A stretch of 64,000 nucleotides of DNA from Spirochaetia bacterium (GCA_963675665.1 OY776510.1:139840-203839), one strand, 5' to 3'. Positions 7,732 through 51,591 are shown, counted from the first letter of the stretch. The notes: generated from the sequence alone by a model not told the origin. Numbers and translations: made by a program.

Positions 7732-7752
7732 CTGGATTTCACTCAGCTAAAA

Positions 7753-8124: not shown

Positions 8125-8229
8125 AATTTGCCCCTTCCTTAAACAGTTTCATTAATTATAAAACACTTGATGAGGTATTTCTATTTCTTTTTCTACCATA
8201 TATTTCAATTTATGGAGAAAATATAACAC

Positions 8230-19364: not shown

Positions 19365-19450
19365 CATTTCTGCTCCCAAATATATTGCTTCAGTATTATT
19401 TCAACTGAATATTACAACAATTGAAGCAGTTAAAAATGTTACCTTATTTT

Positions 19451-19852: not shown

Positions 19853-19872
19853 AAATTGCCTCCACCGAATTA

Positions 19873-25558: not shown

Positions 25559-26491
25559 CTATAAAGCACCGATTTTAATTTTTACTCCGCAGTCTCTGCC
25601 GATATCAACAAGGTACTGCAGATCTTCCTTCTTTACAGGCTGCAAATCATGCAGTTTGTATTTCCTTCCAAGGCCTTTGTATTTCATGTTGCCGAGCCTG
25701 TGATACGGAAGGATCTCTATCCAAAGCAAATTCTTCAATTTCGAAGCCCATTCGAAAATTTCGCGCTGAATATCCGGCTGATCATTAATTCCGGGAATGG
25801 AAGGAACCCGTATAATCATTTTCTTATTGAACCCGTCCAGTTTAATGATATTTTTAAGAATTTGATCATTATTGACGCCGGTATACTTTTTATGAAGAAC
25901 GCTGTCACTGTGCTTAATATCAACATAGATCAAATCAGCGTCCCGTAAAATGTGTAACGAGCTGTCTTCGTTAGTGTAGAGACATGTTTCAACTGCAACA
26001 TGAAAATGATAGTCTTTGCAGGCTTTAATCAGCTCTGCTAAAAACTTTGACTGAAGAAGAGGTTCTCCCCCGGAAAAAGTAACACCCCCTCCTGATTCTA
26101 TATAAAAGTCCCGGTCTTTTAAAACTTCCGCCATAACCTCGTTTACGGACATTTCCCTGCCTGTAAACTCGCGCGCACCGTAATAACATGCGCTTACACA
26201 CTCGCCGCATAATACGCATTTTGAAAAATCTGTATAAATTCCGTATTTATCATCGTACCGAACAGCCCCGACCGGACATTTTTCAACACACCGACCGCAT
26301 AGACTGCATTTATTGGGAAAGTATATAATCTGCGGTTTTTTTATCTGAGATTCGGGATTTGCGCACCAGTCGCATCTTAACGGACAGCCCTTCATAAAAA
26401 CAACCGTCCTTATTCCCGGGCCGTCTTCAAGACCATAACGTTCAATATTAAAAATTATACCCTTCATCTGCCCCATCCTGCTTTCAGGCAT
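25559..26491 (-). CDS. Glycyl-radical enzyme activating enzyme (radical SAM, with two extra ferredoxin-like clusters)
   Basis: It has GCPLRCDWCANPES (CxxxCxxC) plus CSLCGRCVEKCP and CVLCGECVSACYYG. It overlaps the 3' end of the GRE gene by 8 nt. Confidence 0.85.
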   Translation of the reverse strand: MPESRMGQMKGIIFNIERYGLEDGPGIRTVVFMKGCPLRCDWCANPESQIKKPQIIYFPNKCSLCGRCVEKCPVGAVRYDDKYGIYTDFSKCVLCGECVSACYYGAREFTGREMSVNEVMAEVLKDRDFYIESGGGVTFSGGEPLLQSKFLAELIKACKDYHFHVAVETCLYTNEDSSLHILRDADLIYVDIKHSDSVLHKKYTGVNNDQILKNIIKLDGFNKKMIIRVPSIPGINDQPDIQREIFEWASKLKNLLWIEILPYHRLGNMKYKGLGRKYKLHDLQPVKKEDLQYLVDIGRDCGVKIKIGAL

Positions 26492-28910: not shown

Positions 28911-30437
28911 TCAGGCTCCGCAGGCAGCTAATTCTTCGCTTACCATTGGCGTAAGCAGATCTGTCTTACACAGGAACCTCTCACTGTTATCAAATTCATG
29001 AACAACTTTACCTTTTTTCAGGACAAGTATCCTGTCTGAGAGGCTTAAAATTTCTTCAAGTTCATCTGATATGAATATTATGGATGTTCCTTCTTTTGCC
29101 AGGGAATCGATAAGACTATATATCTCTTCCTTGGCACCGACATCAACACCCCTGGTCGGCTGATCCAGTATTATCACTCTTGAACCGATGGAAAGCCACT
29201 TTCCGATTACTACTTTCTGCTGGTTTCCGCCGCTTAAAAAACGGACTTCCTGTTCTTCCGAATGACATTTTATGCAAAGGAAATCTATCATTCTGCGGAT
29301 CGATTTCCGCATCGCCCCGTAATTTATAACACCATATTTCGTGCTTTTTTTCAGGGATGCAAGCGAGATATTATCCCTGATTGTTCTTTTCAAAACAAGC
29401 CCTTCTGTTTTCCGGTCTTCAGGTATAAATGCCAGTTTGGCCGACACCGCCTTTGCGGGGGAACTAACATTTATCTTTTTACCGTCGAGGATTATTTCTC
29501 CGGAGGCGGTCTCTTCAGCTCCAAAAATCATCCGCGCCAGTTCCGTTCTGCCGGAGCCGACAACTCCCGCTATTCCCAGAACTTCTCCCTTTCTCAGGTT
29601 AAAAGACACATCCTTTACGATTCCGTTCTTCTGGGTCAACTCCTTTACCTGAAGAACGGAATCTTCCGACAGGTTGTCCCGGATATATTTTTTCTCGGAG
29701 TCCGAACAGTGACCTATCATGCATTCAACAATCTGCTTTTTTGTAAAGTCTTCGATATTCCGGGTTGTTACATTCTTTCCGTCACGAAGCACCGTCACCC
29801 TGTCCGCCACAGTAAAGATCTCTTCAAGAAAATGTGAAATATAAATAACAGATATACCTTGATTACTAAGATCTTTTATTACTGAAAATAATTTTTCCGT
29901 TTCGCTGATTGAAAGCGACGAAGTAGGCTCATCCATTACCACAACACTTGATTGAATTGCCACAATTCGTGCAATAAGAACAAGCTGCTGCATTGCCGGA
30001 GATAACGATTCTACTTTCCGGTTAGCGTCAATTGGAAAACCGAGGGAATCCAGCAGCGCCTGAGCTTCCTTTCTCATCGAGGGTCTGTCGATTACAGGAA
30101 TGTTTTGCCCTTTTTTTTCCCTGCCTAAAAATATATTCTCGCTTACATCGAGATTTGTTACTAAATCCAGTTCCTGATGAATCATGGTTATGCCGTGGTT
30201 AAGTGCATCAATGGGATCATTAAAATTCAATATTTCATTTTTTAAAACAATTTCTCCAGTATAATTAACATAGATACCGTTCAGTATTTTCATCAAGGTT
30301 GACTTTCCAGCGCCGTTTGCTCCTACAATCGCATGGACTTCCCCTCGTTTAACATCAAGATTGACGCTGTCAAGCACCCGCACTTTATCAAATTCTTTTG
30401 TGATATTTTTCATCTGAAGAACATAACTGTCATTCAT
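28911..30437 (-). CDS. Sugar ABC transporter ATP-binding protein with two nucleotide-binding domains (RbsA/MglA-like)
   Basis: It has two Walker A motifs (GANGAGKST, GVVGSGRTE) and two LSGG signatures. I chose the MNDSYVLQMKNITKEF start because GAAGG sits 9 nt upstream. The longest ORF start at 30494 would overlap the permease gene. Confidence 0.8.
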   Translation of the reverse strand: MNDSYVLQMKNITKEFDKVRVLDSVNLDVKRGEVHAIVGANGAGKSTLMKILNGIYVNYTGEIVLKNEILNFNDPIDALNHGITMIHQELDLVTNLDVSENIFLGREKKGQNIPVIDRPSMRKEAQALLDSLGFPIDANRKVESLSPAMQQLVLIARIVAIQSSVVVMDEPTSSLSISETEKLFSVIKDLSNQGISVIYISHFLEEIFTVADRVTVLRDGKNVTTRNIEDFTKKQIVECMIGHCSDSEKKYIRDNLSEDSVLQVKELTQKNGIVKDVSFNLRKGEVLGIAGVVGSGRTELARMIFGAEETASGEIILDGKKINVSSPAKAVSAKLAFIPEDRKTEGLVLKRTIRDNISLASLKKSTKYGVINYGAMRKSIRRMIDFLCIKCHSEEQEVRFLSGGNQQKVVIGKWLSIGSRVIILDQPTRGVDVGAKEEIYSLIDSLAKEGTSIIFISDELEEILSLSDRILVLKKGKVVHEFDNSERFLCKTDLLTPMVSEELAACGA

Positions 30438-30450
30438 TCCAAACCTTCTT

Positions 30451-31440
30451 TTAATCTCTCTTTGTATTGGATAAACTGTCAATACCGACTGCACCGAGAA
30501 TTATCATTCCGGTAATTGCTGACTGCCAGAAGGGATTAACCCCGAGCAGCTGAATAAGATTGAGTATCAGCCCCAGAATTATAGTTCCTATAACGGAACC
30601 CAGGATATTTCCGCGACCTCCTTCCAGCGAAATTCCCCCGACGATACACCCGGCTATTGCAGTAAGCTCATACCCCTGACATGCGTCCGCAGTCGCCATC
30701 AATACCCTTAAATTTAATAAAACCCCTCCGAGAGACGCTAACATTCCACAGTACATAAACGCCAGAATTCTCAGTTTTTGAGTCTTCACCCCGGAAAGCC
30801 ATGATGCGTTTTCATTTCCGCCTATTGCATACAGATACTGACCGAAGGTGGTGTATCTCAGGACAAAGAACAGAACAACAGCAAGAACAATCCATATTGA
30901 CGCTGAAATTGGAAAAGGTCCTATTTTTCCGAGACCAATCACGCCGTATGCCCTTGGAACCCCCATTACAGGAAAACCGTTGGTTACAATATAAATAATA
31001 CCCCTTCCGATAGTCATTGTTCCCAGAGTCGTTACAAAATAGTTGATTTTAGCTTTGGTTATTAATAGACCGTTTACAAGACCCATAATGCAGCCTACCG
31101 ACAGGCCGCCTGCAACACCAATAACAAATCCGAACTCACGGAAAAGGTGTGTTGAAACTATTGCCGTCAGCGCTGCCGTTGAGCTGACTGATAAATCAAT
31201 CGCTCCAGTTATAAGAACAAAAGACATTCCCAGAGCAATGGTTCCATATACTGCATTATGGTTAAAAATATTAAAAATGTTTTCAATAGAACGAAATGTA
31301 GGTGAAATTATTCCGCTTACAATAAACATACCTATTAAAACGAAGAACATGGTATTTTCTCTTTTCTTCAACACCCTGCCGAGTCCAAGAGCGTTTTGCT
31401 TTATAAAACTACCCTCAACTCCGTTTATGATTTCTGACAC
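30451..31440 (-). CDS. Sugar ABC transporter permease (RbsC/AraH-like)
   Basis: 329 aa with about 9-10 TM segments. It has a GTG start with AGGAG 9 nt upstream. Confidence 0.75.
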   Translation of the reverse strand: MSEIINGVEGSFIKQNALGLGRVLKKRENTMFFVLIGMFIVSGIISPTFRSIENIFNIFNHNAVYGTIALGMSFVLITGAIDLSVSSTAALTAIVSTHLFREFGFVIGVAGGLSVGCIMGLVNGLLITKAKINYFVTTLGTMTIGRGIIYIVTNGFPVMGVPRAYGVIGLGKIGPFPISASIWIVLAVVLFFVLRYTTFGQYLYAIGGNENASWLSGVKTQKLRILAFMYCGMLASLGGVLLNLRVLMATADACQGYELTAIAGCIVGGISLEGGRGNILGSVIGTIILGLILNLIQLLGVNPFWQSAITGMIILGAVGIDSLSNTKRD

Positions 31441-31497
31441 TTTAGCATCTCCTTATCTCAACCGGAAAACCGGCTTTTCCTTCATTATGCATCTAAC

Positions 31498-31530
31498 GGG
31501 AACCTCAGAACAAAGTGCTCTGAGGTTCCC
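31498..31530 (-). other. Intercistronic stem-loop between the SBP and permease genes (12-bp perfect stem)
   Basis: The 12-bp perfect stem gggaacctcaga-acaaagtgc-tctgaggttccc is not followed by a U-run. Two smaller hairpins flank it (31464..31480 and 31541..31559) within the 145-nt spacer. Confidence 0.5.
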
Positions 31531-31585
31531 TCATTAGAAGCCGGTTTTTCTGAAACCGGCCCGTTAATATACAATCTTTTGATCT

Positions 31586-32557
31586 CTACCAGGCTGCTCC
31601 ATAATTCCCGATATTATCAACAGTTACTTTCGGCAAATCAGTCCAGGTCTGTTTTTCTATGTTCCTGTCTCCGTTTAGGTAGCGAACAGCCACCTCTATA
31701 CCGAGATTACCCTGTTCCTGTGGATCCTGAAGAACCGTACCGTAGATTTCTCCTTCATGGATTGAATCAACAACTTCCTGAGGCAGATCAAAACATACAA
31801 TTTTACCAAGAAGTTCATCTCTTCCTGAAGACTTTACCGCTTCAACAGCGCCAAGGGCTTCGTAAGGCCCCTGCAATACGATTGCGTCAATTTCTCCCTT
31901 TTTATACTTTAAAAGGAAATTCTCAACTACAACTATTGTTTTAGCCTTATCCCAGTCTTCCGGCTGTTTTGCAAGGATATTGATACCCGGAGCATTTTTG
32001 GAAATATAATCCTCAAGCCCCTGTTCCCTCATTACCTGAGGCGAACTTCCGAGGGAGCCCTGACAGAGGACGATATTTCCATTACCAGCCAGCAATTCAT
32101 CAAGGATTTCCCCCTGAATAGAGCCTCCGGTACGGTCATCACATCCTACATATGTTACTATATCAGGACCTTCTCCGAGCTGACGGTTTACTGTTACTAT
32201 AGGAATACCCGCCGCGATGCATTTATCAGCTACAGGAACCAGTGCATCAAGCTGCGCTGCGACAATGATAACAAGATCTTTCTTCTGAATGATAAAAGTT
32301 TCAATCTGGCTCATCTGAACATTCGGATCTGATTTTCCGTCCTGAATATCAAGATTTGCGCCCAACCTGTCTGCAGCACCTTCCATACCCTTCATCATAC
32401 GAACAAAAAAGGGAATTTTGAAATCGGCCATAGCAACGCCGATGTTATACCCCTGACTGGATGTTCCTGTATCTTCCTGTGATCCGTTTGCAAAACTAAC
32501 CCCGCATACCAGCAGCATTGCAGTTGCCATCACGATTACCAGCATCTTTCTTTTCAT
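31586..32557 (-). CDS. Periplasmic sugar-binding lipoprotein (RbsB-like, CUT2 family)
   Basis: It has a lipobox (LLVCG) followed by a periplasmic binding protein type I fold with sequence resembling ribose-/monosaccharide-binding proteins. AAGGAGG sits 8 nt before the ATG. Confidence 0.75.
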   Translation of the reverse strand: MKRKMLVIVMATAMLLVCGVSFANGSQEDTGTSSQGYNIGVAMADFKIPFFVRMMKGMEGAADRLGANLDIQDGKSDPNVQMSQIETFIIQKKDLVIIVAAQLDALVPVADKCIAAGIPIVTVNRQLGEGPDIVTYVGCDDRTGGSIQGEILDELLAGNGNIVLCQGSLGSSPQVMREQGLEDYISKNAPGINILAKQPEDWDKAKTIVVVENFLLKYKKGEIDAIVLQGPYEALGAVEAVKSSGRDELLGKIVCFDLPQEVVDSIHEGEIYGTVLQDPQEQGNLGIEVAVRYLNGDRNIEKQTWTDLPKVTVDNIGNYGAAW

Positions 32558-32664
32558 GCTAATCCTCCTTAAAATAATTACCCTGCCCTGATTTTCCAGG
32601 ACTTAATACTTTACGATTACCACGTCATTTCCGGAAATAATTTCTCATGGTTGATGTATTATAG

Positions 32665-32720
32665 ATTACGTTTACATATAAGTAAAATAAATATATTTAA
32701 TGTTTACTATGCATTAAACT
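32665..32720. promoter_or_regulatory. Candidate LysR-type operator sites in a divergent AT-rich intergenic region
   Basis: The GTTTAC motif occurs twice, about 32 bp apart. The second copy lies within the dyad GTTTA-N8-TAAAC (32702..32719). Confidence 0.3.
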
Positions 32721-32737
32721 TATACTATAATAATTAT

Positions 32738-33622
32738 ATGAACCTGGATTGGTACAGAGTATTTTTTCAATTAGCTAAAAGCGGCAGTTTTTCAAAAGCC
32801 TCAAAGGAACTGTTTGTAACCCAGCCTGCCGTCAGTAGAACAATCGCACAACTGGAAGACTTTTTAGGGTGTGAATTATTTTACAGATCGCGTCAGGGTG
32901 TAACTTTAACAGAACAGGGAAAGGTCTTGTATGAGAACCTAGAAAATGCATTCGATTCAATCTCAGCTGCGGAAAAAGCTATTGAAGAAATACAAACCCT
33001 GAAAAAAGGGGAAATAAAATTCGGAGCAAGCGATATTTTATTTAGAAACTATCTTGTTGAGATTCTAAAACTGTTTAAATCGGAGTATCCTAATATAAAA
33101 ATAAAAATTGTCTCACATAGTACTTCAAATATTATAAACCTGCTAAAAAGAGGAGAAATCGATTTCGGCATAGTAAATTTACCGGTTGCTACTGACAAGA
33201 AACTAGCATTTAAACCCATCATAACAGTACAGGACTGCTTTATAGTGGGCGAAAAATATAAACATCTGGTTGAAAAAAGAATTCATCTTAATGAATTAGT
33301 TGATTATCCTTTTATACTATTGAATAATTCAACAAATACCAGAAAACATATAAACCAGCATTTTAAAAATAATTCCATCTCGATTATTCCTGATTTTGAA
33401 TTTGGAAATACTGATTTGCTTGTAGAATTTGCAAAAAATGATTTTGGTATTGCTTATGTCTGCAAAAATTTTGTTAAACAAAATCTTGAATCAGGCCAGG
33501 TTTATGAAATAAATCTTTATGAAGAGATACCTCCACGAGAAATCAGTGTTGCCTGGTTAAACAGCATACCTCTTTCGGTAGTGTCAAAAGCCTTTATTGA
33601 GATGCTGGATAAACCTGTATAA
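32738..33622 (+). CDS. LysR-family transcriptional regulator
   Basis: It has an N-terminal HTH (MNLDWYRVFFQLAKSGSFSKASKELFVTQPAVSRTIAQLE) followed by a LysR substrate-binding domain. I chose the internal ATG at 32738 because the longer ORF adds a non-homologous N-terminal extension. Confidence 0.75.
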   Translation: MNLDWYRVFFQLAKSGSFSKASKELFVTQPAVSRTIAQLEDFLGCELFYRSRQGVTLTEQGKVLYENLENAFDSISAAEKAIEEIQTLKKGEIKFGASDILFRNYLVEILKLFKSEYPNIKIKIVSHSTSNIINLLKRGEIDFGIVNLPVATDKKLAFKPIITVQDCFIVGEKYKHLVEKRIHLNELVDYPFILLNNSTNTRKHINQHFKNNSISIIPDFEFGNTDLLVEFAKNDFGIAYVCKNFVKQNLESGQVYEINLYEEIPPREISVAWLNSIPLSVVSKAFIEMLDKPV

Positions 33623-33668: not shown

Positions 33669-34283
33669 CTAGAAATTTAAATCAAATATATCCTGCGGTT
33701 GTTTAAAAATATATTCTGCATTAATATCTGTAATTGTTTTAGCACCCCAGGATGCCAAACCGAAATCTATTTCCGCATTTATGGCACAAAGGCTGTCATA
33801 CAGAGTATCTCCAATATAGATCACGGAAGACGGATCAGCTCCTGATAATTCCAAATATTTCAATAATGGAGCCGGCTGCGGTTTATGGTTTAGAGTGTCA
33901 TCCACACAAACGGTATATTTAAAATATTTTTTTAAATCAAGATTATCAAATAATTTATCCAGAGCATTTCTCGTTCTGGAGGTTACAATTCCCATAGTGA
34001 TGTCTTTATTATATAAGGCGTCAAGCATGTTTCTTATACCGTTAAATAAAACAAGCGATTTACTTTCATGTCTTAAATAAAAATCCCATTCCTCCTTGGC
34101 CTGTTTAATATTCTTAATTCCCAATAGTCTCAAAGCCTCTACGCCGGGAATACCTAATACAAAAGACAATTCTTTATTTTCTTTTTTTATTCCATATTTT
34201 TCGACAACTTTACTCAATGTTGAGATAATTACATTTTCAGAATCAATCAATGTACCGTCTACATCGAAAACAAAATTTAGATA
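33669..34283 (-). CDS. HAD-IA family hydrolase (phosphatase / beta-phosphoglucomutase-like)
   Basis: Motif I MYLNFVFDVDGTLIDSE lies at the N-terminus after trimming to the internal ATG. GDTLYD matches motif IV. Confidence 0.65.
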   Translation of the reverse strand, partial: YLNFVFDVDGTLIDSENVIISTLSKVVEKYGIKKENKELSFVLGIPGVEALRLLGIKNIKQAKEEWDFYLRHESKSLVLFNGIRNMLDALYNKDITMGIVTSRTRNALDKLFDNLDLKKYFKYTVCVDDTLNHKPQPAPLLKYLELSGADPSSVIYIGDTLYDSLCAINAEIDFGLASWGAKTITDINAEYIFKQPQDIFDLNF

Positions 34284-34383
34284 CATAAAAACATCCTTAT
34301 ACAACAATAAACAATTGCTATAAACATATACAGGGAGTATCCGGGCGATCATAAATGATATATCCAATCAGGTATGAAGCTTT

Positions 34384-35325
34384 TCATTGGCCGCTGCCGC
34401 CAACACTTACCATAAACCCAAAATCCGTGAGAATATTTGCTGTTTTTGTAATCTCTTCAAGGCTTATCCCCTGCTGGTTTTTAAAACTGTAATCCTTATC
34501 CAACCCTTCCCATTTTGTCTCTCCGGCCTGATGGAAAGGCATCAGATGTATTTCCTCAATTCCCGCAGCTTTACAAAAGTTCCCCATAGTCTCAATTTCC
34601 CGTGTCGAATTGTTTACACCGGGAATTAAGGGATATCTTACAATAATCTTTTTCCCCTTGTCCACGGCATCACGTAAATTTTGCCGGATCAGCTTGTCAT
34701 CAACTCCTGTATATTCTCTGTGCATATCTGCATTCGGGTGTTTAATATCAAAGAGTATTAAATCAGCGGGAAGGATAACACGACGAAAATTTTCAGTTGA
34801 AGCATACCCACAGGTCTCTATTGTGATATGGATATCGTCTTCTTTCAGAGAAATTATAAGCTGTTCCGCGAAAATACTTTGTAAGGTTACCTCCCCGCCG
34901 GACAGCGTAACACCGCCGCCGCTGTTCATATAGAAAACAAGATCGCGACTGACAATTTCTCTGAGCTCATCAACCGTATAAAATTTCCCTATCAGCCTCC
35001 GCGCCTCCGACGGACATACTTTTGCGCACTCACCACAGTCGGTACATTTTAAACGATCAGTTATCAGTTTTTCATCACTGATGTATATTGCGTCAGATTT
35101 ACAGACTTCGGCACACTTTCCACAACCGATACAGGCATCCTGATCATAAATTATTTCAGGCATCATTCTGAACGTTTCAGGATTATGACACCATTTACAC
35201 CTAAGAGGACACCCCTTGAAAAAAACTGTGGTCCGGAGCCCCGGACCGTCATGGACACAGTATCTCTGAATATCCGAAATTACAGCAATGGTGCCGGATT
35301 TTATTCTATCTTGCTCCCTCATCAT
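34384..35325 (-). CDS. Glycyl-radical enzyme activating enzyme (second copy)
   Basis: It has GCPLRCKWCHNPET plus CIGCGKCAEVCKSDAI and CTDCGECAKVCPSEA. It overlaps the GRE2 stop by 4 nt. Confidence 0.85.
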   Translation of the reverse strand: MMREQDRIKSGTIAVISDIQRYCVHDGPGLRTTVFFKGCPLRCKWCHNPETFRMMPEIIYDQDACIGCGKCAEVCKSDAIYISDEKLITDRLKCTDCGECAKVCPSEARRLIGKFYTVDELREIVSRDLVFYMNSGGGVTLSGGEVTLQSIFAEQLIISLKEDDIHITIETCGYASTENFRRVILPADLILFDIKHPNADMHREYTGVDDKLIRQNLRDAVDKGKKIIVRYPLIPGVNNSTREIETMGNFCKAAGIEEIHLMPFHQAGETKWEGLDKDYSFKNQQGISLEEITKTANILTDFGFMVSVGGSGQ

Positions 35326-37598
35326 ATACCATGCTTTACCCTTTTTATCATAATATCCTGATGCATCTTCGGCAGTGCGACAAAATACCCCGAATACCCC
35401 CCTATGCGCACTCTGAGCCCCTTATAAGCCTCCGGTTGTTTCTGGGCATTACGCATCATTTCCTCACTGACTCCGGTAACAGTCAAGATGTTTCCTCCCA
35501 ACTCCATAAAGGAGCGGATAATTCCTGTTAGCCTTTGTATCCCTTCATCACCAGCTGCCTCATTTGCATTAATTTGTATATCCAGCGGGCAACCGCCGAA
35601 ATACGGCAGAAGATCCGGCTTGGTGCATGATAAAATAGCTGCTGTCGGACCGTTTGTATCACAACCGACTGACGGAGAATAATTACTGGATATTGTGGTT
35701 TCTGCACTGCGTCCGTCCGGAGAAGCCCCGCAGCGACCTCCCAATTTTGCGTAATGCTCAAATGTGCCCAACGCGAGAGGAAGCATCATCTTCGGGTCTT
35801 CCGCCTGTAAATCCTTCACATAAGCAGCTAAATCACCCAATATACGTATCATCAGCTCATCCGCATAATTATCATCGTTTCCGAATTTTAAGCCCCTTGA
35901 TGCAAGTGTTTCACGAAGAACCTCATAACCTTTAAAATTTTCACTGGTAGCATTTATTATCTGCTTCATAGTGAATTTATTTTCCTCAAAAACAAATTTC
36001 CTGATTGCGGCAAGAGAATCGACGGTATTTGCCATTCCGGAGATTATAGGCGGATACATCATATACCTGGCCCCGCCGTTCGTAATATCCAGACCGTTTT
36101 CAATACAGTCGTCAATAAATATCGACAGCATCGGGTCCGGTGCGATTGTGCTGTGCACCCCGTAGATATTTCTTCTTGTTCTGATTCCATCGCTTATCGC
36201 TTTCTTCATATGGGAAAGATAAGCATCATACAGCTGCTCAAAAGCCGTAAATTCTTTCGCATCCCCGGTATCGAGCTCACATTCTCTTGTCTTCCGAACC
36301 AGGCTGCAGCCGTTATGAAGCGTATATTCCAGCTGTAGAAGGGATTCAATATCAACATGGTTGTGATCAGTACATCCGGGGATAAGCGTTTCCCAGCACC
36401 CGTCATTTGAATAATCGCGCGCATCCTCCAGCGGCACGCCCTTTTCGGTAAATCCCGGTATTATTTTTTCATCATTATAAATGGCAGGTTCGCCGCTTCC
36501 CGAACGCAGTATTCGTGCACATTCCTCATATAAACGCGGTGGAGATCCTTTAAAAAACCGGACTGACATCACTGGAGCTATCAGTTCAAGCTTATTCCAT
36601 AACCGCAAGATCATATAAGTCAGCTCGTTTGTCGCATCGTTGCCATCCCTTTTCTGACCGCCGATTATTGCATTCATAAACCAGGAATTTGCTCCGATTC
36701 CGTAGTTCCCGGTTCCGGGCGCAGTAAAATACGGAGGGACCTTTTCTGAAAGATCGATAGCCTTTCCGCCCGGGGCAAAATCCGTTACCTCTGCATGGCT
36801 TTCCCAGGAATCCGGACTTGTCTGGATGCGTTCACTGAATTTTGCAAGCCAGGAGGCTAAAAGCTCTTCCGCATATTCCTGTGATATCAAACCGCTTTCA
36901 GTGTCCTCTTTATAGAAAGGATAGAAGTACTGGTCGCAGCGCCCGACAGGAATCAAATCCATTGTGGATTGGAGGGCAATATAAACAATCCAGAAACACT
37001 GTAATGCTTCATGAAGCGTCTCCGGCGCATTTTCCGGTGTTTTTTCAAGGATCCTTGCGATTTCCAGAAGTTCATTGCGCCTGGCTGCATCGGATTCATT
37101 CAACGATTCAAACTGCGCGATTTTAGCGTAACGTTGAGCGAAACGTTTCAGGGCATCCAGAGATATAAACATCGCTTCATATTCAGATATCTTTCTTTCA
37201 TCACTTTCAAGCTTTAATTTTTCTAAAATCTTTTCACGATAACCATGCAATCCAAGCTTTAGAAGCTTCTCAAAATTTATAGGCAGATGAGCCCATACAG
37301 AGTTTACCCCGACCCCTTTTTTTGCTGCCTCCTCTTTTTCTTCAGGGGTGGCATATTCAGGGAATTCACGTCCCAGTTCGCTGCTGGCCATTCCGGCGAT
37401 GCCGACAATCAATTCGTAAGGTCTGATATATGCCGGCATGTTATTTATCATTAAATCTATTGCCATTGCCTTGCGTATAACAATCGGCAAAGATCCGGCC
37501 TTTTCGTCCGTCAATACAGTGAGCTCACTGCCCCACCATTCTTTTTTTTCTTTGAAACCGTCAAACATGCTTTTTTTTATTTTTTCTATTCTGGTCAT
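35322..37598 (-). CDS. Glycyl radical enzyme, eliminase-class, with non-canonical radical loop (second copy, 758 aa)
   Basis: It is collinear with GRE1 (Cys loop DGCWETLIPG aligned to GCIEASIPG). The C-terminus reads LRVRIGGYSGYF rather than the canonical RVSGY. Confidence 0.75.
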   Translation of the reverse strand: MTRIEKIKKSMFDGFKEKKEWWGSELTVLTDEKAGSLPIVIRKAMAIDLMINNMPAYIRPYELIVGIAGMASSELGREFPEYATPEEKEEAAKKGVGVNSVWAHLPINFEKLLKLGLHGYREKILEKLKLESDERKISEYEAMFISLDALKRFAQRYAKIAQFESLNESDAARRNELLEIARILEKTPENAPETLHEALQCFWIVYIALQSTMDLIPVGRCDQYFYPFYKEDTESGLISQEYAEELLASWLAKFSERIQTSPDSWESHAEVTDFAPGGKAIDLSEKVPPYFTAPGTGNYGIGANSWFMNAIIGGQKRDGNDATNELTYMILRLWNKLELIAPVMSVRFFKGSPPRLYEECARILRSGSGEPAIYNDEKIIPGFTEKGVPLEDARDYSNDGCWETLIPGCTDHNHVDIESLLQLEYTLHNGCSLVRKTRECELDTGDAKEFTAFEQLYDAYLSHMKKAISDGIRTRRNIYGVHSTIAPDPMLSIFIDDCIENGLDITNGGARYMMYPPIISGMANTVDSLAAIRKFVFEENKFTMKQIINATSENFKGYEVLRETLASRGLKFGNDDNYADELMIRILGDLAAYVKDLQAEDPKMMLPLALGTFEHYAKLGGRCGASPDGRSAETTISSNYSPSVGCDTNGPTAAILSCTKPDLLPYFGGCPLDIQINANEAAGDEGIQRLTGIIRSFMELGGNILTVTGVSEEMMRNAQKQPEAYKGLRVRIGGYSGYFVALPKMHQDIMIKRVKHGI

Positions 37599-39546: not shown

Positions 39547-39807
39547 TCAGCCGCCTGATAAAAAAGGTATTATCATAAAAGAATCCCCTTCTTTTACCGT
39601 AATATCTTCCTTAATCGCTCTAGCCAAAGGAATCCCTCTGATCATCATGGTATACGGGGTCTCGATTCCGTAATTTGTATCCAAAAAACTCGAAACATAT
39701 TGTGAAGCATTTCTGATTTCATCATCAACATAAAGCGTTTCGAATTTTACACCTGTTATATTTTTATATTCACCAATATATTCAATCGTGATTTTGACAC
39801 CTTTCAT
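39547..39807 (-). CDS. MoaD/ThiS-like small sulfur-carrier-fold protein (C-terminal GG)
   Basis: 86 aa ending ...PFLSGG. It is the first gene of the AOR-GRE2 operon. Confidence 0.55.
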   Translation of the reverse strand: MKGVKITIEYIGEYKNITGVKFETLYVDDEIRNASQYVSSFLDTNYGIETPYTMMIRGIPLARAIKEDITVKEGDSFMIIPFLSGG

Positions 39808-41340: not shown

Positions 41341-44300
41341 ATGGAAAAAATGATGGAAAGTCACGGCCCCTTTTATGTCGGCTTCGATGTAGGCTCTGAT
41401 ACAATTCATACGGCAGTGGTTGACTCGCAGGGCCGCCTGGTCTGGAGCCCCGACTCTCTAATGCACTTCGGTAACCCTGTGGACGCACTGAAAGAAGCAT
41501 ACGAGGGAATTCAAGAATATTTTGAAAAAGACAGCATTGCATCATATTCGTTTACCGGCACGGCCGGGAAGCTGATTGCAGAGGTTTCAGAATCTCCCTT
41601 TTATTATGATACCATAGCCATCTCGGAGGGCGCCCGCGTTATAGCTCCCGAGTCGGAATACATCATCCATGTCGGGTCAAAGGACCCGTATTTTTTTGAA
41701 AGGGAAACCGATACGGTGATCACCGGCAAATCCTTCATATCGGACCATGGAACAGGAACCAAATGCGGCGGCGGCAGCGGCATTCTGATAAACAAACAGG
41801 TCCGCAGGTTCTTTGCAGAAGATTGTCCCGTGGAACTGGAAGACCCGCAGGCTCAGGGCAGCGATGGCGCAGCGTACCAGGCCAGGATGCGAAACAGGCG
41901 CAAGCTGCAGAAGCAGGTGGAAGAAATTCACGAAAAAGCCATTGAGACCATTAATGCCTCCAACAAGGATCTTGATGTGGGCGGACGCTGCGGCGTTATC
42001 ATTCAGTCCGATATGATACACATGCAGAATTCCGGCGAACAGATAAAAAATATCCTGAAAGGGATGTATGTACGTATAGCACGCAACTACCGAAGCGACG
42101 TTCTCGGCACGCGCACAATAGATCCGTCAAAACGGGCGGTAGCTACAGGAGGAATATTCCTTAACGGCAACCTCGCCGAGATGTTCAGCAGCGAACTAGG
42201 CATCAATCTGGAACGGCCCGACGAGCTTGAAAAGATAGGGGCAGCAGGAGCAGCCTTAAAAGCGCTTGATGATAAAAAGGAATCCGGTTTCACCATTGAA
42301 TCCCTGGACAAACTAATCGAAGCCCAGATGCGTGAAATAAAATTCGCCCCCGCCCTGAAATCAGTCCTTCATAAAGTTAAAAGTTATGATGAAGAAGATG
42401 CGGTATTCAAGTCATCCGGGGGGCTTGTAATTTTCAAGGAGCTTTCCGGAACCACAGAGGTCGTAATCGGTATTGACGGCGGGTCAACCACAACCAAAGC
42501 CCTGATAGCCGGAGCGGATGACCTGGACATTATTGCCGAAATCTGTCTTGACACCGACGGAAAGCCCCTTGAAACGGCCCAGCGGCTTTTCGCAGAAATT
42601 CGCACTTATCTGGGGAAAAAAATAAATATTCGGGGAATAGCCTATACCGGATCTTCCGGGCAGTTTTACCACCGCCTTTTTACCGACTTTTCCCTGCCGG
42701 CGGCAGACTGTGAAACCGATATTGTAAAAGACGAAATCACCTGCCATGCACAGGGCGTCAGGCACTTCAACGACAAGGTTGATACAATATTCGAGTGCGG
42801 CGGACAGGATGCAAAATTTACCGTATTCAACAAAGACGGCACGGTAAAAAAAGCCAAAATGAACCTGTCATGCATGGCAGGAACCGGGCAATCGATGAAG
42901 AACATGCTGGACATGCTCGGATATGACTTTAAAACATTCAAAGAGTACGCCCTTGCTGCAGAAAGAACTCCAATTACGGATGAAATGTGCGCCATATTCA
43001 CCGAAGCAGGGGTACTGAAACTTCTGGCATTGAACTTTCCAAAAGAAGAGATTGCCGCCGCCATAGCCCACGGCTTCATGGGCGGTTACGCAAATAAATT
43101 TGTCGGCAGCGAAACCTTCGGAGAATTTGCGTCAGCACAGGGCGGGCCCTTTAAGGGCCTGGACTGCCTGGCGGCGCTGGCGCTTCATACAGGAATTGAA
43201 ATCCACGCCTTTCCCCACCGGCAGCTTTTCGGCGCCATGGGCGCGGCCATAGTTGTCTATAATGAGATCAGACAGGCGGCCGCCGACGGGAAGAAAGCCG
43301 GTTCCAGGTTCCGCGGACTCGACCTGGCCGATGCTGCTTTTGAGAAGCGGGTTGAGAACTGTTCATCAATGATTGAAGATTCCTGCGGAACCCGCGACTG
43401 CAAGCTTCAGGTTTACAAAATCGGCGATGACGAGATTTTTTCCGGCGGGCTCTGCCCCAAGGGAAATACCGAATCTTCAACCAGGCGGAGCCCCGATTAC
43501 GTCAACCTCTACAAGAAGTTAATGAACCGTGAGCTTGAAAAATACTCGACAAGCCCCGATAACATCCTTGAAAGCGACGGAACACGTATTCTGATTCCCA
43601 GAACCCTGCACTTCCTTAACCAGCGGGGAATCTTTTTCACCTCTCTTTTTAAAGAACTTGGATTCAAAGTTATAGTCAGCCCCGAATCTAACGATGAAAT
43701 AGCCAACCTCGGGCTGGCGACATCTCATTCCGAGGCATGCTTTCCGTCAAAACTGCAGCACGGGCATGTAGCCTATCTTAAAAATTTCCTCCGACCGGGA
43801 ATCGATAAAATGTTTCTGGTTAACTACCTCGGACAGGGAGAGAAGGGCGCCCCGCAGGACCAGTCAAAGACCTGCCCCTTCATCTCGGGAGCCGGATATT
43901 CCGCAAAAGAAGCTATAAAAATAGCTACCGAAGATGCGCTGCTGCCTTTGATTCTCTTCGATGATCCTATCTACAAGCTTGAGGAAGACATCTGGCAGGA
44001 TTTCAAGCGGGCGTTCCGCAACACCCCGACACCGGGAAAAATAACGAAAAAGATAGTAAAAAAGGCTGTTATAAAGGCCATGAACAACCAGAACAGCTTT
44101 AACCGATCCGTATGGGACCAGGGGGCAAAAATAGTCGAGGGACTCAAAGCAAAGGGCCATAAAATATTTATAGGAATCGGCCGCGGTTATACCCTTTTCG
44201 ACGACAAGGCGAACTCAAAGGTCCATGAGCTGTTCGTTTCAAACGGCCTGCATTTCATTCCCGCCTTTTTTCTTGAACAGCCGGATATTGATTTTTCGGA

Positions 44301-45891
44301 TATCGTTCATCATATGTACTGGTTCCAGGGAAGGGAAATGACACGTTATAACCTGATGGTGGCCCTGGATCCCCAGCTTTACGGCGTCCGGGAAACCAAT
44401 TTCAACTGCGGTCCCGACGCAATGCTCAGTTACCATGAAACGGAAATATTCAACCGTGCCGACAAGCCGTATCTTACCCTGCAGACCGACGGCCATAATT
44501 CCAATGCCCAGTTCGGCACCCGCACCATGGCCAACTGGGAGGTTGTAAAAAACCATTGCCCCGGAAACGTCACGCTTGAAGATCTTAAAACAGCCGGTTC
44601 CGGCGAAGGAGAACTGCTCAAAAGAGTAATGGGCGTTCCGAATATGGGGCTCCAGAGTTCACAGGCCCTGGCGGCTGTCTTCCGTTCGGTCGGCGTGGAA
44701 TCAGAAGTCATGCCCACAAAAAATACCGAGACCGAATATTACAGCCGGAAATACCTGATCACCAACAACTGCCTGCCCATGCATATCCTGTTCGGGGACT
44801 GTATGGCCTGGATTCACAACAAGGTAAAAGAAGGCTATGATGCCAATAAGGACCTGGCCCTGTTTATTCCGATGGCAGGAGGCCCCTGCAGACTGGGCCA
44901 GTACCATATTATTACAAGGTATTTCCTGGACCAGAACGGTTATGGCGGGGTGCTGATTGTTAACCCGGCAGCCTACCTTGACTGGGAAAACATCCCGGTC
45001 CCGGCAAAAGAGAGAGGGATGATCCGGAAAGGTCTTGCAAAAGCAACTATAGCCAACGACATTCTCTACAATGCAAGGCTTCGCACCCGCCCATACGAGC
45101 TTAACCCCGGCGAGACCGACCGGGTAATGGATGAAATCGGCAGAGAGTTTATCGGTATAGTCAGCAACGGAAGTGATTTTGCAGACATGAAGGCCCTGAT
45201 GAACAAGGCTGCCGGGGCCGTTCAGAGAATCCCCGTAAGCAATGAGCGTTATCCGAAGGTAGGTATGTTCGGCGAAATCTTTGTCCGTTCCCACGACGGT
45301 TCAAACGAGGAATCTATCCGCAAACTTGAATCTCACAAACTTGAAGTGGCGCCCAGGCTTACCGCCGACATGCTTGAGTATAACAACAAAATGCAGCGGG
45401 CCGCATATATCAAGGAACGCAGGTTCGGTCACTGGTTTGTCTCCTACATAAAAGGCGTGTACATGCATAACGCGGAAACGGCATTCATGAAACCCTTTGA
45501 AGAGTACCTGGCGGACCGCAAACAGAAACGCCCCATTGAGATATACGACCTTTTAAGGAAATTCAATATTTTCGATATCAGGATCAAGGGAGAAGCCGGA
45601 ATATCAATAGGAACATCCTATATGTTTATGACGGACAATCCTGAAGATCTCTGCGGGGTTTATCATCTTGAGCCCTTCGGCTGTATGCAGGAATGTGTCG
45701 CCACATCCAAGATTCAAAGCCTGATAGACGTTCAGCGCGGAAAGGAAACAGATGTTTCACGGAAGGTAATCCCGTACCTGGTCGGAGTTTTCGGCGATTC
45801 GGAATTGCCCAACCTGGAAGCGGAAATGGCCATGTTTGCCGAGAAATGCTACGCCAGGCGGGAACTGATTCAGTCAAGGAGGGGAGAATGA
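41341..45891 (+). CDS. Giant fusion protein: two BadF/BadG/BcrA/BcrD-type (HgdC-like activase) ATPase domains + DUF2229-like + 2-hydroxyacyl-CoA dehydratase D-component (HgdB)-like domain
   Basis: 1516 aa. The second ATPase domain has VVIGIDGGSTTTKALI (phosphate-1), ITCHAQGV (cluster Cys) and FECGGQDAKF. The first ATPase domain (FYVGFDVGSDTIHTAVV...) lacks the Cys. The C-terminal third is HgdB-like with conserved Cys (CPKGNTE, GGPCRLGQY). AAGGA lies 6 nt before the ATG. Confidence 0.7.
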   Translation: MEKMMESHGPFYVGFDVGSDTIHTAVVDSQGRLVWSPDSLMHFGNPVDALKEAYEGIQEYFEKDSIASYSFTGTAGKLIAEVSESPFYYDTIAISEGARVIAPESEYIIHVGSKDPYFFERETDTVITGKSFISDHGTGTKCGGGSGILINKQVRRFFAEDCPVELEDPQAQGSDGAAYQARMRNRRKLQKQVEEIHEKAIETINASNKDLDVGGRCGVIIQSDMIHMQNSGEQIKNILKGMYVRIARNYRSDVLGTRTIDPSKRAVATGGIFLNGNLAEMFSSELGINLERPDELEKIGAAGAALKALDDKKESGFTIESLDKLIEAQMREIKFAPALKSVLHKVKSYDEEDAVFKSSGGLVIFKELSGTTEVVIGIDGGSTTTKALIAGADDLDIIAEICLDTDGKPLETAQRLFAEIRTYLGKKINIRGIAYTGSSGQFYHRLFTDFSLPAADCETDIVKDEITCHAQGVRHFNDKVDTIFECGGQDAKFTVFNKDGTVKKAKMNLSCMAGTGQSMKNMLDMLGYDFKTFKEYALAAERTPITDEMCAIFTEAGVLKLLALNFPKEEIAAAIAHGFMGGYANKFVGSETFGEFASAQGGPFKGLDCLAALALHTGIEIHAFPHRQLFGAMGAAIVVYNEIRQAAADGKKAGSRFRGLDLADAAFEKRVENCSSMIEDSCGTRDCKLQVYKIGDDEIFSGGLCPKGNTESSTRRSPDYVNLYKKLMNRELEKYSTSPDNILESDGTRILIPRTLHFLNQRGIFFTSLFKELGFKVIVSPESNDEIANLGLATSHSEACFPSKLQHGHVAYLKNFLRPGIDKMFLVNYLGQGEKGAPQDQSKTCPFISGAGYSAKEAIKIATEDALLPLILFDDPIYKLEEDIWQDFKRAFRNTPTPGKITKKIVKKAVIKAMNNQNSFNRSVWDQGAKIVEGLKAKGHKIFIGIGRGYTLFDDKANSKVHELFVSNGLHFIPAFFLEQPDIDFSDIVHHMYWFQGREMTRYNLMVALDPQLYGVRETNFNCGPDAMLSYHETEIFNRADKPYLTLQTDGHNSNAQFGTRTMANWEVVKNHCPGNVTLEDLKTAGSGEGELLKRVMGVPNMGLQSSQALAAVFRSVGVESEVMPTKNTETEYYSRKYLITNNCLPMHILFGDCMAWIHNKVKEGYDANKDLALFIPMAGGPCRLGQYHIITRYFLDQNGYGGVLIVNPAAYLDWENIPVPAKERGMIRKGLAKATIANDILYNARLRTRPYELNPGETDRVMDEIGREFIGIVSNGSDFADMKALMNKAAGAVQRIPVSNERYPKVGMFGEIFVRSHDGSNEESIRKLESHKLEVAPRLTADMLEYNNKMQRAAYIKERRFGHWFVSYIKGVYMHNAETAFMKPFEEYLADRKQKRPIEIYDLLRKFNIFDIRIKGEAGISIGTSYMFMTDNPEDLCGVYHLEPFGCMQECVATSKIQSLIDVQRGKETDVSRKVIPYLVGVFGDSELPNLEAEMAMFAEKCYARRELIQSRRGE

Positions 45892-46935: not shown

Positions 46936-49900
46936 TTAAAAGAGACCGATCCGGGCTCCGACGCTTGGAAGAAGCACTACTTCCGGGCTGACATCCGAGG
47001 AGATCAACCAAAGCTGCCCTTCCCAAAAAACCGAAATGTATTTTAAAAAACGCCTATCTTTAAAACTTATTTTGGGCAATTCAAATTGCCCGACAACTCC
47101 AGCAAGAACAACCCCCCAGCTGTCTTCCGAATCAACGGAATTACTGCTGAAATATGAAAAATTTGCGCCCAGCGCAGCTGTTGCGGACAATGCGGAAAAC
47201 TCGGGTCCGAAAAGCCAGGAAAATGGAACCTGCGCAAGGTTTGCAAGAAGCTTGGCCCCAAATACATTACCTCCAAAACGGGAGGCACGTTCATACCCCG
47301 TATCAGGATCAATCACGGTTTCTGGCGCATAACCGTACTGCATCTGAAGTTTTACGTTGTCATCCATAAAGGTCAGACCGAGCCCGGCTGTAAAATATGT
47401 AGCGCCAAGCGCCGAGGCGTCAAAGTACATGCCCTGAATAAAACTCGGCGTACTGTAATTATCCTTGTCACCATCACGAAGATTCAGCCATACGCCTGTT
47501 AATCCGCCGTCATCTGATGCGCTTCCTGATAAAAGCAAATTCCCGAACTGCCGGGAATTTTCCTCGGGGCTTAACAGATATAAATTCGGAGCTTTTGTAT
47601 CCATAACTACGCTGCATCGCGAGTATACCATGCTGTCTTCACCGGAAATTCTAACCGCCAGATTTAACTCTCCGTCGGGTACTTCTTCGCTGTATAAAGT
47701 GAATTCCCATTTCCCGTCTTTTATTCTCAATTTTCTGAAGGTTATGCCTCCGTCAAGGCTGAATTCCAGTTTGCCCGGCTGCAGTTTTTCAGGATCCTCC
47801 GGATCAGATTCAGCCTGTTCATAACCGGCGCTTCCTTCAATTGTAAAACGGTCGGTCACATACTGCTTTTCTGACAGATTGTCAAATGTTACCCACAGGC
47901 CGGTATCGGAATAATCAAGTTCGATACTTTCACTTTCAACTTCACTGCCATACTCGTCCGTCATAAGAGATAATCTGCCCCAACCTGCAGTATAATCATC
48001 ATCCTGCAGGACGTCACAGCGAAAAAATCCGGAGGAATCTACCTCAACCGTTTTAAACAGCCTGTCGTTTAATTTAAGATGTACCCTGGAAGCCTTGTCG
48101 GGCAAAAACCCCTGAACAGAAAATCTCGGCCCGACTGATTCCCCGGGCAGGGGCGCCAGAAGTTCAGGCGGCCTGATTCCCTCAGGCAACACTTCTATTA
48201 CCCTGCTTACAGTACCGGTATTATCTGCTGAATCTACAGCCTCCGCCCTGAAGCTGTAGAATCCGGGGGACAAACCATTAATATCAAGAGTCTCCCGGAT
48301 TGTCCCCCTTGAAGAAATATCTTTTACCGTTTCCATGCCGCTTTCTTTATCATCAAGGGGCGTCAGAATTGCGGTAAGGCTTTTTAAGCTGCTGTTGTCG
48401 AACACCCTTCCGCTCAGCTCAAGGCTGCCCCTGACAGCCTCGCCGTCGGAAGGTTTTGAAAAGGTTATTTCCGGAGAAGTATTGTCGGTGTTTATAAGAG
48501 TTGTAATCATGCTGCTTACCCCGGCATTATCTACAGCCCTGATAAGGATGGATGTTATTCCGTCGGACAGAAGGCTGGTATCCAGCGGATATGTCCACAG
48601 TTCAGTCCCCTCCGCCTTCTGGAAAGTGTTGCCGTTATCATGAGATATTAAAATCGCGGCAATCCCGTTTACATCGGAGGATACTCCTTCGAGTAATACG
48701 GAACCTTTTACAACCGAATCAAGATCCGGTTTGTTTATTTGTATGAAAGGGGGATCAAGAGATACGATAAATTTTCTTTCAACTTCTTCACTCTCAAGAC
48801 CGTTAAGATCAACAGCTTTGACCCTTACCGTATTAATATCATCTTGCAGTTCGGAAAGCTTCAACGGAACCGTGAAAAGGTTGCCGCTGCCGGCTTCAAG
48901 GTAAGCGCCGTCATTAAGACTGTAACTGACGGAAGCAACACCCTCCTGATCCAGTATCAAACCGGACAGCTCAAACCCTGTTTCCGTCGCACTCATTTCT
49001 TCGGGAACCTGAATGTCCACAACCGGCATACCCGCAGAAAAATCCAAATCAAGAAGAAGAGGCTGCTCAACTTTATTTCCTGCATTATCAACAGCTGAAA
49101 CAAGGACCTGCTCCGGATTAAACCCGAGAGAAGTAAGGTTGACATCAAGATAAAAAACATTTCCATCCTGTACTGCATCAAAAATAACAGGATCGGTTTC
49201 CTGTTTTATAAAGCTTATTTCTATCTTTGAACAGGAATCAATATCGTCCACTTTGCCTGATACGGTTATCTGTTCGGCCCCTTTACTGAACGACGATGTA
49301 ATAAAAGATAACGAAGGCGCTTTTGTATCCTTCAACAGCGGAATAGAAACAATTTCGGTATTACCAAAAATATCCCCGGCTTCAAGTATTACCGTAACTT
49401 CACCATCCTCTTGATGTAGTACCGAAACCTCAACCGGATCGCTGCCTGATAAATCGGTATAAGTTTTTCCCCCGTCGACAGAAAATTTCAGGAAACCGAG
49501 AGCGGTGTTATCTGAAGCTGCCGTATCAAGCAGAAAATGTTCGCCTATTATGCTGCCGGGAGACGGCTGAGTTATTTCTATAACCGGAGAAGTTCTGTCG
49601 GAAGCTATATTCATCGGTTTGGATATCAATTCTTTTCCGTTTTCAAGAGTTGCTGTCAAAATGATGTCTTCAGCTGCGCCTTCTTCGGAAGCTGTTATCC
49701 TGAACCCGTTTCCTGAAAAGGATACATCCAGAAATTCGCCGCCCGACAGATTCATACTTTTTATCCCGCCGCCGCCCGTCCATCCGCCTAAATAATCCCC
49801 TTCGCCCAATACAATATAATCGGACGCAGCAGATTCGGGATATACAAAATACAACCCTTCCGGATCAGACAGAGAGTTGTAATAAAAGGTTGTTTGCGCG

Positions 49901-51579: not shown

Positions 51580-51591
51580 GATGTACTCCTT

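Follow-up and report, generated by a model that had tools for sequence, protein, structure and literature searches.

A clade of glycyl radical enzymes with Gly-Gly and Cys-Trp-Glu loops in a carbohydrate-type gene context, seen from a Spirochaetia locus

In this study, we focus on a gene for a glycyl radical enzyme (GRE), termed GRE2, that lies in a stretch of 64,000 nucleotides from a Spirochaetia bacterium (GCA_963675665.1 OY776510.1:139840-203839), the whole of which we will call the window (Table 1). The gene is a single, intact open reading frame (ORF) on the minus strand, its ATG is preceded by an AGGAG ribosome-binding site, and a reading of the same interval on the plus strand is ruled out by many stop codons. 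It stands in an operon that runs, on the minus strand, from a promoter-like site through an 86-aa ORF, an aldehyde:ferredoxin oxidoreductase (AOR), GRE2 and a radical-SAM activating enzyme (activase) to a HAD-family phosphatase. On the other side of a divergent gene for a LysR-type regulator are found a CUT2-type ABC transporter and, behind it, a second GRE (GRE1) with an activase of its own. We will argue that GRE2 is almost certainly a working GRE that belongs to a clade of its own, and that it most likely acts on a monosaccharide-derived vicinal diol, be it an alditol, an aldose or an aldonate.

Table 1. Features of the window discussed in the text, in window coordinates
Feature	Position	Strand	Basis and remarks
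GRE2 (758-aa GRE, NDGCWE / RVRxGG clade)	35322..37598	-	ORF and translation, Pfam, structural model
Gly loop LRVRIGGYSGYF, residues 728-739	35382..35417	-	Translation; G734 predicted radical site, G733 unusual preceding Gly
Cys loop DGCWETLIPG, residues 399-408	36375..36404	-	Translation; C401 predicted thiyl site, W402, E403 (CXE)
Predicted cognate radical-SAM activating enzyme, 313 aa	34384..35325	-	TIGR02494, 339 bits against a cut-off of 174
AOR, 631 aa	37636..39531	-	AFOR_N 246 bits, AFOR_C 328 bits
86-aa ORF ending FLSGG	39547..39807	-	Translation; directly upstream of AOR, operon head
Promoter-like site	39881-39853	-	Ahead of the 86-aa ORF
HAD-family phosphatase	33669..34367	-	HAD_2 135.5 bits; downstream of the activase
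Divergent LysR-type regulator	32651..33622	+	HTH_1, LysR_substrate; between the two GRE operons
CUT2-type monosaccharide/polyol ABC transporter	28911..32557	-	Pfam and NCBIfam matches
CUT2 binding protein	31586-32557		Part of the transporter
CUT2 permease	30451-31440		Part of the transporter
CUT2 ATPase	28911-30494		Part of the transporter
GRE1, 803 aa	26484-28895	-	Pfam and NCBIfam matches
GRE1 activase	25559-26491
1516-aa protein	41341-45891	+	BcrAD_BadFG ATPase and DUF2229
Adjacent 1547- and 1809-aa proteins	46936-57021	-	Bacterial Ig-like families
424-aa LarA-type protein	1527-2801	-	Lactate racemase family

A first-pass annotation of this DNA had singled out the C-terminal glycyl radical motif of GRE2 and a cysteine loop with a tryptophan between the cysteine and the glutamate, and both are found exactly as it described them. 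For the assignment of the sites, GRE2 was aligned with HMMER and BLAST to the propanediol dehydratase of Roseburia inulinivorans (PD; 5i2a), CutC (9f3w), HypD (6vxc), the glycerol dehydratase of Clostridium butyricum (GD; 1r8w) and the GRE1 of the window. In every one of these alignments G734 falls on the radical glycine (G763 of GD). C401 falls on the catalytic cysteine (C433 of GD, C438 of PD), E403 on the eliminase glutamate (E435 of GD) and H104 on H164 of GD and H166 of PD. The same annotation had allowed that the radical glycine might have been mis-assigned; the alignments agree on both G734 and C401, which shows that the assignment was correct, and they also place GCIEA of GRE1, as had been stated, opposite the cysteine loop of GRE2. 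In Pfam, the protein matches the PFL-like family PF02901 with 439.6 bits and Gly_radical (PF01228) with 62.2 bits over residues 638-740.

How far the RIGGY loop deserves to be called non-canonical, as it had been, depends on the yardstick. A PROSITE-style pattern for GREs reads [CSA]-G-Y, and the loop of GRE2 does not fit it. The fingerprint given by a June 2026 review (PMC13450708) is RVxG[FWY]x6-8[FL]x4Qx2[IV]x2R, with x free, and RIGGY differs from it solely by an isoleucine in place of the valine. Over its full length GRE2 reads R731-I-G-G734-Y, x6, L742, x4, Q747, D-I-M750, I-K, R753, so that it carries the fingerprint except for two conservative changes, an isoleucine in place of V at 732 and a methionine in place of [IV] at 750. 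The glycine preceding the radical site is indeed unusual, and it is shared by the clade. The accompanying statement that nearly all GREs have Ser, Ala or Cys there is right for the characterised enzymes but is overstated across sequence space: among the 142 nearest representatives of clusters at 50% identity, it is A in 66, G in 32, W in 17, S in 14 and T in 6, with F (3), H (2), V (1) and R (1) as rarer residues.

An AlphaFold2 model of GRE2, built with 60 relatives, reached a pLDDT of 91.5 and a pTM of 0.92. In this model the glycine hairpin is formed by strands 729-732 and 735-738 with G733-G734 at its tip, and the cysteine hairpin by strands 397-398 and 404-405 with D399-E403 at its tip. 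Foldseek gave TM-scores of 0.76-0.86 against the 50 GRE chains listed; they were 0.79-0.86 for PD, GD, HypD, CutC, PflD, YbiW and others, at identities of 23-29%, and 0.81-0.86 for the set of PD, GD and HypD (0.86 for PD 5i2g, 0.84 for GD). By its predicted structure, GRE2 is a member of the GRE superfamily with the ten-stranded PFL-like barrel fold.

Conservation was counted over 185 distinct relatives of GRE2. C401 and E403 are present in 185/185, while W402, G733 and G734 are each present in 184/185, which is the sharing of motifs among homologues that the first-pass annotation had proposed to look for. T612, F613 and E614 are each kept in at least 179 of the relatives, and W306 in 155. Judged from these sequences, the clade is a coherent one, defined by NDGCWE, by RVRxGG and by T-F-E at 612-614, and G733 and W402 appear as its signature, not as damage or as a one-off of GRE2. 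With motifs that the whole clade shares, a chance occurrence need not be considered. The residue that follows the radical glycine is Leu in 146 relatives, Phe in 18, Tyr in 16, Met in 3 and Trp in 2; about 80% of the close relatives thus break the RVxG[FWY] of the review, whereas GRE2 itself retains the tyrosine, and most of them deviate more than GRE2 does at this position.

The clade is widespread and, as far as our literature search reached, uncharacterised. When a single genome of each species was scanned with a pattern, 256 species-representative genomes proved to contain a relative, and these span the Clostridia, Spirochaetota, Enterococcus, Propionispira, Nostocoides, Chloroflexota and Planctomycetota and include Diplocloster, Faecalicatena, Agathobaculum and Clostridium tyrobutyricum. 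In an exhaustive HMMER search of representatives at 50% identity, the clade occupies approximately the top 35 clusters and then fades into the general GREs.

The possibility that GRE2 is a decaying or non-catalytic paralogue, with an altered glycine loop unable to hold a radical, is to be weighed against this conservation. A loop that fails the PROSITE-style pattern, and the presence of a second GRE nearby, are what one might expect of such a gene, but the GG and CWE motifs are near-invariant among 185 relatives of several phyla, the 758-aa ORF is intact, it has a dedicated and translationally coupled activase, and the predicted fold is confident. Moreover, against its 88%-identical orthologue the dN/dS of GRE2 is 0.075, which denotes purifying selection. 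We therefore hold this explanation to be extremely improbable, and a degenerate paralogue, which the first-pass annotation had itself considered, is effectively excluded by this ratio.

The joint presence of a glycine before the radical site and a tryptophan after the cysteine calls for comment. In the 142 representatives, both are found together in 26, the glycine alone in 6, the tryptophan alone in 8 and neither in 102, a strong association. The paired change could be a co-adapted remodelling of the interface for radical transfer, and this may go with an altered recognition by the activase, because most members of the clade lack an aromatic residue after the glycine. A steric compensation, in which Gly733 would make room for Trp402, is unproven, and the idea is weakened by the fact that the signal comes mostly from one clade and that a separate RVWGF group has a tryptophan at both positions. 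This group, to which several of the representatives P0156-P0254 belong, is made of short GREs of about 710-765 aa with Trp before the radical glycine, another variant of the loop, and the GCWE cysteine loop is found in 5 of its 17 representatives. We also observed two representatives, P0191 and P0248, with Ala (RVAAY) and Thr (RVATY), respectively, at the position of the radical glycine, and in this they are similar to the aminoacyl radical enzymes that were described in 2024.

The annotation was also right to call GRE2 short for an eliminase: solved eliminases and isomerases have 776-850 aa, while members of the GRE2 clade have about 747-806 aa, and the best 120 database relatives are all of about 750-800 aa except a 437-aa fragment (P0082). 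The shortness of GRE2 is caused by a deletion of about 53 aa, relative to PD, between residues 83 and 103, a loss for which about 32 extra residues, inserted at 253-300, make up in part.

To any solved GRE, the identity of GRE2 is 23-29%, and none of the family models that stand for known functions claims it. With TIGR01774, the NCBIfam model of the PFL2/glycerol dehydratase subfamily, GRE2 scores 419.5 bits against a cut-off of 678.2, whereas GRE1 scores 639.6. The NCBIfam equivalogs leave it further below their cut-offs, with 396 bits out of 1100 for HypD, 333 out of 1050 for CutC (TIGR04394), 383 out of 1000 for HpsG, 334 out of 1000 for HpfG, 321 out of 1109 for NF007437 (PflD-type), 281 out of 1100 for the indoleacetate decarboxylase, 212 out of 1150 for the HPA decarboxylase and 46 out of 994 for PFL. 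The characterised classes listed in the June 2026 review are GD, PD, HpfG, HypD, HpyG, HpzG, CutC, IslA/IseG and HpsG, next to the isomerases HplG, YbiW and PflD, the formate lyases, the decarboxylases, the X-succinate synthases and, as a recent addition, the aminoacyl radical enzymes (PMC13450708). None of these activities fits the carbohydrate-type gene context of GRE2, which we describe below. Clade-specific motifs, scores below every cut-off, low identity and gene context together support what the first-pass annotation had suggested, namely a divergent GRE subfamily whose substrate may be novel.

In the window, the start of the activase gene overlaps the stop of GRE2 by 4 bases, an arrangement that indicates translational coupling. 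The activase has the CX3CX2C motif as CPLRCKWC (C39-X3-C43-X2-C46) together with two ferredoxin-like cysteine motifs, and by these motifs and its TIGR02494 score it is a bona fide GRE activase. Immediately upstream of GRE2 and in the same direction lies the AOR, which we predict to be the consumer of the aldehyde made by GRE2. The 86-aa ORF at the head of the operon has no match in Pfam; its C-terminal GG and its position before the AOR are such that it may be a MoaD/ThiS-like sulfur carrier that helps to supply a tungsten or molybdenum cofactor. A 90-aa ORF is seen before the AOR of a related locus (L006). As for the HAD phosphatase, it also follows GRE2 and the activase in two other related loci (L004 and L005); its ORF has 232 aa from a TTG, and since its orthologues have 199-207 aa, the true start is probably further downstream.

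The LysR gene keeps its position in L004 and L005. The binding protein of the CUT2 transporter is nearest, in the PDB, to ribose-type and CUT2 binding proteins. GRE1 and its activase, behind this transporter and in the block that the LysR gene separates from the GRE2 operon, complete what looks like a regulon. GRE1 is 28% identical to GRE2, and its nearest solved structures are GD (540 bits), PD (527 bits) and 9rco. The pairing of GRE1 and GRE2 recurs in L004 and L005, which suggests a pathway with two GREs.

The context of GRE2 can be followed from its closest to its more distant relatives. In L004, whose GRE2 is 88% identical, the layout of the window is found with an aldehyde dehydrogenase (Aldedh) gene in place of the AOR, while L005 (76% identity) keeps LysR, GRE2, activase, HAD, GRE1, activase and ABC transporter alike; in L087 (74%), an Aldedh gene is directly upstream, and in L006 (51%) it is an AOR that takes this place. 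L004, a metagenome locus, has two further peculiarities. Its GRE1 orthologue (18749-21072) was predicted as two separate ORFs (471 and 303 aa), for which a frameshift, a pseudogene or an assembly error is possible. In addition, a microcompartment cluster, absent from the window, lies just upstream of Aldedh-GRE2 (1175-8193); it encodes BMC and EutN shell proteins along with Aldedh, RpiB, DeoC and a MOFRL glycerate kinase, and it resembles the type that utilises sugar phosphates.

We clustered the neighbouring genes of 76 loci and took the counts from those 56 whose flanks reach 5 kb or more in either direction. An activase is present in 50/56 of them, a non-acylating aldehyde dehydrogenase (ALDH) or an AOR in 40/56, a sugar transporter in 37/56, a zinc alcohol dehydrogenase (Zn-ADH) in 20/56, a split transketolase in 19/56, an SDR in 15/56 and an iron alcohol dehydrogenase (Fe-ADH) in 13/56. 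The neighbouring ALDHs score best against models of non-acylating enzymes (lactaldehyde, betaine-aldehyde and succinate-semialdehyde dehydrogenase), all below cut-off. GFO, PfkB, class II fructose-bisphosphate (FBP) aldolase, a KduI/IolB-family gene and an MMSDH gene also recur.

The presence of an ALDH or AOR beside the GRE, together with sugar transporters, suggests an aldehyde product that would be oxidised to a carboxylate and made from an imported carbohydrate. GRE2 moreover carries, as C401-W402-E403, the CXE motif of GRE 1,2-eliminases and isomerases, a motif present in every 1,2-eliminase and isomerase that the June 2026 review describes, in which the glutamate makes a hydrogen bond to the substrate hydroxyl wherever a structure exists (PMC13450708). 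We infer from this a reaction type, an aldehyde product and a class of substrate, and on balance we lean, with modest confidence, towards the reading that GRE2 is a CXE-type radical 1,2-eliminase that would dehydrate a sugar-derived vicinal diol to an aldehyde, which the AOR would then oxidise.

The corresponding mechanism would run as follows. The adjacent radical-SAM activase would take a hydrogen from G734, which in the model sits where the C-terminal hairpin turns, and the radical would move from there to C401 on the cysteine loop, predicted to face it. The thiyl radical of C401 would take a hydrogen from the carbinol carbon of the substrate, while E403 would deprotonate the carbinol hydroxyl and the group next to it, most likely itself a hydroxyl, would leave. 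The product radical would regain its hydrogen to give the aldehyde, which would be oxidised to the acid by the co-transcribed AOR or, in orthologues, by the non-acylating aldehyde dehydrogenase.

PD is the best sequence match of GRE2 (342 bits; 5I2A/5I2G) as well as its best fold match (TM 0.86). The two share the PFL-like barrel, the aligned glycine and cysteine hairpins, C-x-E and the histidine, and PD yields an aldehyde, as GRE2 would. They differ by an identity of 28-29%, by Val to Trp after the cysteine and Ala to Gly before the radical glycine (from PD to GRE2), and by the deletion, near residue 90, and the insertion mentioned above. PD is surrounded by genes for a CoA-acylating aldehyde dehydrogenase, a phosphotransacylase and microcompartment shells (glycol-waste review), whereas the neighbours of the GRE2 clade, with their sugar transporters, AOR or non-acylating ALDH, transketolase and polyol dehydrogenases, would seem to belong to another setting, and around GRE2 itself no microcompartment shell genes were found within the window.

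These comparisons bear on the idea that GRE2 is a divergent B12-independent dehydratase of glycerol, 1,2-propanediol or another small diol such as ethylene glycol, with a pocket narrowed by the tryptophan. PD and GD being the best matches in sequence and fold, with CXE and His retained, the idea has a natural starting point; the aldehyde-oxidising neighbours are compatible with it, bulky conserved residues (W402, F613 and W306) could shrink the pocket, and the transketolase neighbours could supply glycolaldehyde or ethylene glycol. GD (1R8W/1R9D), however, is only 28% identical to GRE2, which falls below the cut-off of the subfamily. The glycerol-binding residues of GD are H164, H281, S282, Y339, D447 and Y640. 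By sequence alignment, H164 is kept as H104, but H281 would correspond to D214, S282 to L215, Y339 to F307 and Y640 to G611, and D447 falls in a variable stretch; clade-wide, H281 is replaced by D or E, S282 by L, Y or F, Y339 by F or L and Y640 by G. Furthermore, GRE1, in the same block and far closer to GD and PD, would already serve such a function, and the operons with DeoC and a kinase that we describe below require a product larger than C2-C3. Taken with the lack of shell genes in the window, this makes a small-diol dehydratase rather unlikely.

HypD (6VXC) provides both the highest-scoring equivalog model for GRE2 and the best activase model (343 bits); its D278 aligns with D214 of GRE2, a position that is E or D in 163/185 relatives, and it shares with GRE2 the CXE chemistry of C-O cleavage that we predict for the latter. 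Its identity to GRE2 is nonetheless 27%, its model stays far from its cut-off, and GRE2 has no proline-metabolism neighbours.

YbiW and PflD are the sole characterised GREs that act on carbohydrates in the 2026 review, and they convert 1,5-anhydro-hexitol-6-phosphate into 1-deoxyfructose-6-phosphate (PMC13450708). One may thus consider GRE2 as an isomerase or a ring-opening lyase of that kind, acting on a sugar phosphate to give a ketone that would then be cleaved by an aldolase. CXE is kept in isomerases too, aldolase and kinase genes are common beside the GRE2 clade (PfkB and ROK kinases with a class II FBP-aldolase or DeoC in several related loci), the HAD phosphatase follows the activase in the sub-clade of the window, and the TM-scores to 8ID0 and 8ID7 are 0.83-0.86. 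Yet the identity to YbiW and PflD is just 25-26%, and GRE2 reaches less than a third of the cut-off of the PflD-type model. The ABC transporters import unphosphorylated sugars, with no phosphotransferase system gene among the annotated neighbours, and a ketone product would leave the aldehyde-oxidising enzyme unexplained, which is adjacent in the closest loci and present in 40 of the 56 loci overall. We consider this alternative unlikely as well.

CutC resembles GRE2 by its score (324 bits to 9f3w), its fold and its eliminase logic, in which CXE leads to an aldehyde, so that a C-N, C-S or C-P lyase, releasing an aldehyde and a leaving group other than water, also has to be weighed. CutC and IslA share the CXE chemistry and yield acetaldehyde, the aldehyde-oxidising neighbours would suit them, and the HAD phosphatase might hint at phosphorylated compounds. 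On the other hand, the equivalog scores for CutC, HpsG and HpfG all fall far short, GRE2 has neither a cut-type microcompartment nor an amine context, the annotated neighbourhoods contain no sulfite reductase, sulfite exporter or amine-handling genes, and the transporters are of the CUT2 sugar type. Such a lyase is very unlikely.

Returning to the dehydration of a sugar-derived diol, we can propose a reaction specific to the clade, although only as a tentative possibility: the conversion of an alditol into a 2-deoxyaldose, for instance at the terminal vicinal diols of C4-C6 carbohydrates. It is suggested by operons of Faecalicatena fissicatena (L012), F. faecalis (L075) and Nostocoides (L014), which combine an ABC transporter, DeoC (above the TIGR00126 equivalog cut-off in all three), a ROK kinase, the GRE and an activase, and for which the simplest logic is pentitol to 2-deoxyribose to kinase to DeoC. 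There, the pentitol would be imported and dehydrated by the GRE to 2-deoxyribose, the kinase would phosphorylate it, and DeoC would cleave the phosphorylated sugar to glyceraldehyde-3-phosphate and acetaldehyde. More generally, a 2-deoxyaldose could either be phosphorylated and cleaved by DeoC or be oxidised to a 2-deoxyaldonate for the Iol-like or transketolase steps; the loci with PfkB, FBP aldolase, KduI/IolB and MMSDH would be in keeping with a 2-deoxy-aldonate that feeds into the lower part of the inositol pathway. In the genome of the window, such a pathway, under the control of LysR, would employ both GRE1 and GRE2 together with an AOR of the tungsten type. Other loci carry an Fe-ADH, an HpaB-family protein, an acetyl-CoA hydrolase/transferase-family protein and a 3-hydroxyacyl-CoA dehydrogenase. 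The HpaB family includes 4-hydroxybutyryl-CoA dehydratase, and this module could serve the fermentation of 4-hydroxybutyrate.

Several observations weigh against the reading that we favour. The contexts vary by sub-clade (DeoC and ROK, Iol-like, 4-hydroxybutyrate module, transketolase), and the clade probably covers several substrates, so that evidence from relatives at 40-50% identity transfers only loosely to GRE2. The sub-clade of the window also differs from the consensus of the clade at candidate pocket positions, with L for H at 105, D for E at 214, L for Y at 215, S for H at 305, F for L at 307, C for K at 409 and H for N at 615. The equivalences of pocket residues come from pairwise sequence alignment and not from coordinates, and H104 is conserved in most PFL2-type GREs, which leaves it no power to single out dehydratases. 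The matches of the binding protein are generic (CUT2 of the ribose, xylose and polyol types) and do not identify a ligand, and the HAD phosphatase is not explained by the favoured model. As for the literature, a full-text search, which did not cover subscription journals, found no published characterisation of the clade, and the glycol-waste review names the known PD alone.

Elsewhere in the window, the 1516-aa protein resembles a fused activator of enzymes of the 2-hydroxyacyl-CoA dehydratase or benzoyl-CoA reductase type. The two adjacent giant proteins match bacterial Ig-like families alone (Big_7 and Big_13, with Big_3_3 in the 1547-aa protein only), and both are presumably at the cell surface. 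The LarA-type protein is encoded near a CLC channel gene.

The anaerobic reactions that GREs catalyse are chemically difficult ones, and each new assignment has exposed a pathway of the gut or the environment, such as those from choline to trimethylamine or those of hydroxyproline, sulfonates and anhydro-sugars. The clade of GRE2 offers a natural test of the variation that is tolerated beside the radical glycine and the thiyl cysteine, and its context is consistent in combining carbohydrate transporters with aldehyde-oxidising enzymes. Its assignment would be likely to show in what way sugar alcohols, or compounds related to them, can be fermented by anaerobes with neither oxygen nor B12. If the conversion of alditols to 2-deoxyaldoses is true, it would constitute a previously unknown anaerobic route of sugar-alcohol catabolism in gut Clostridia and in Spirochaetes.

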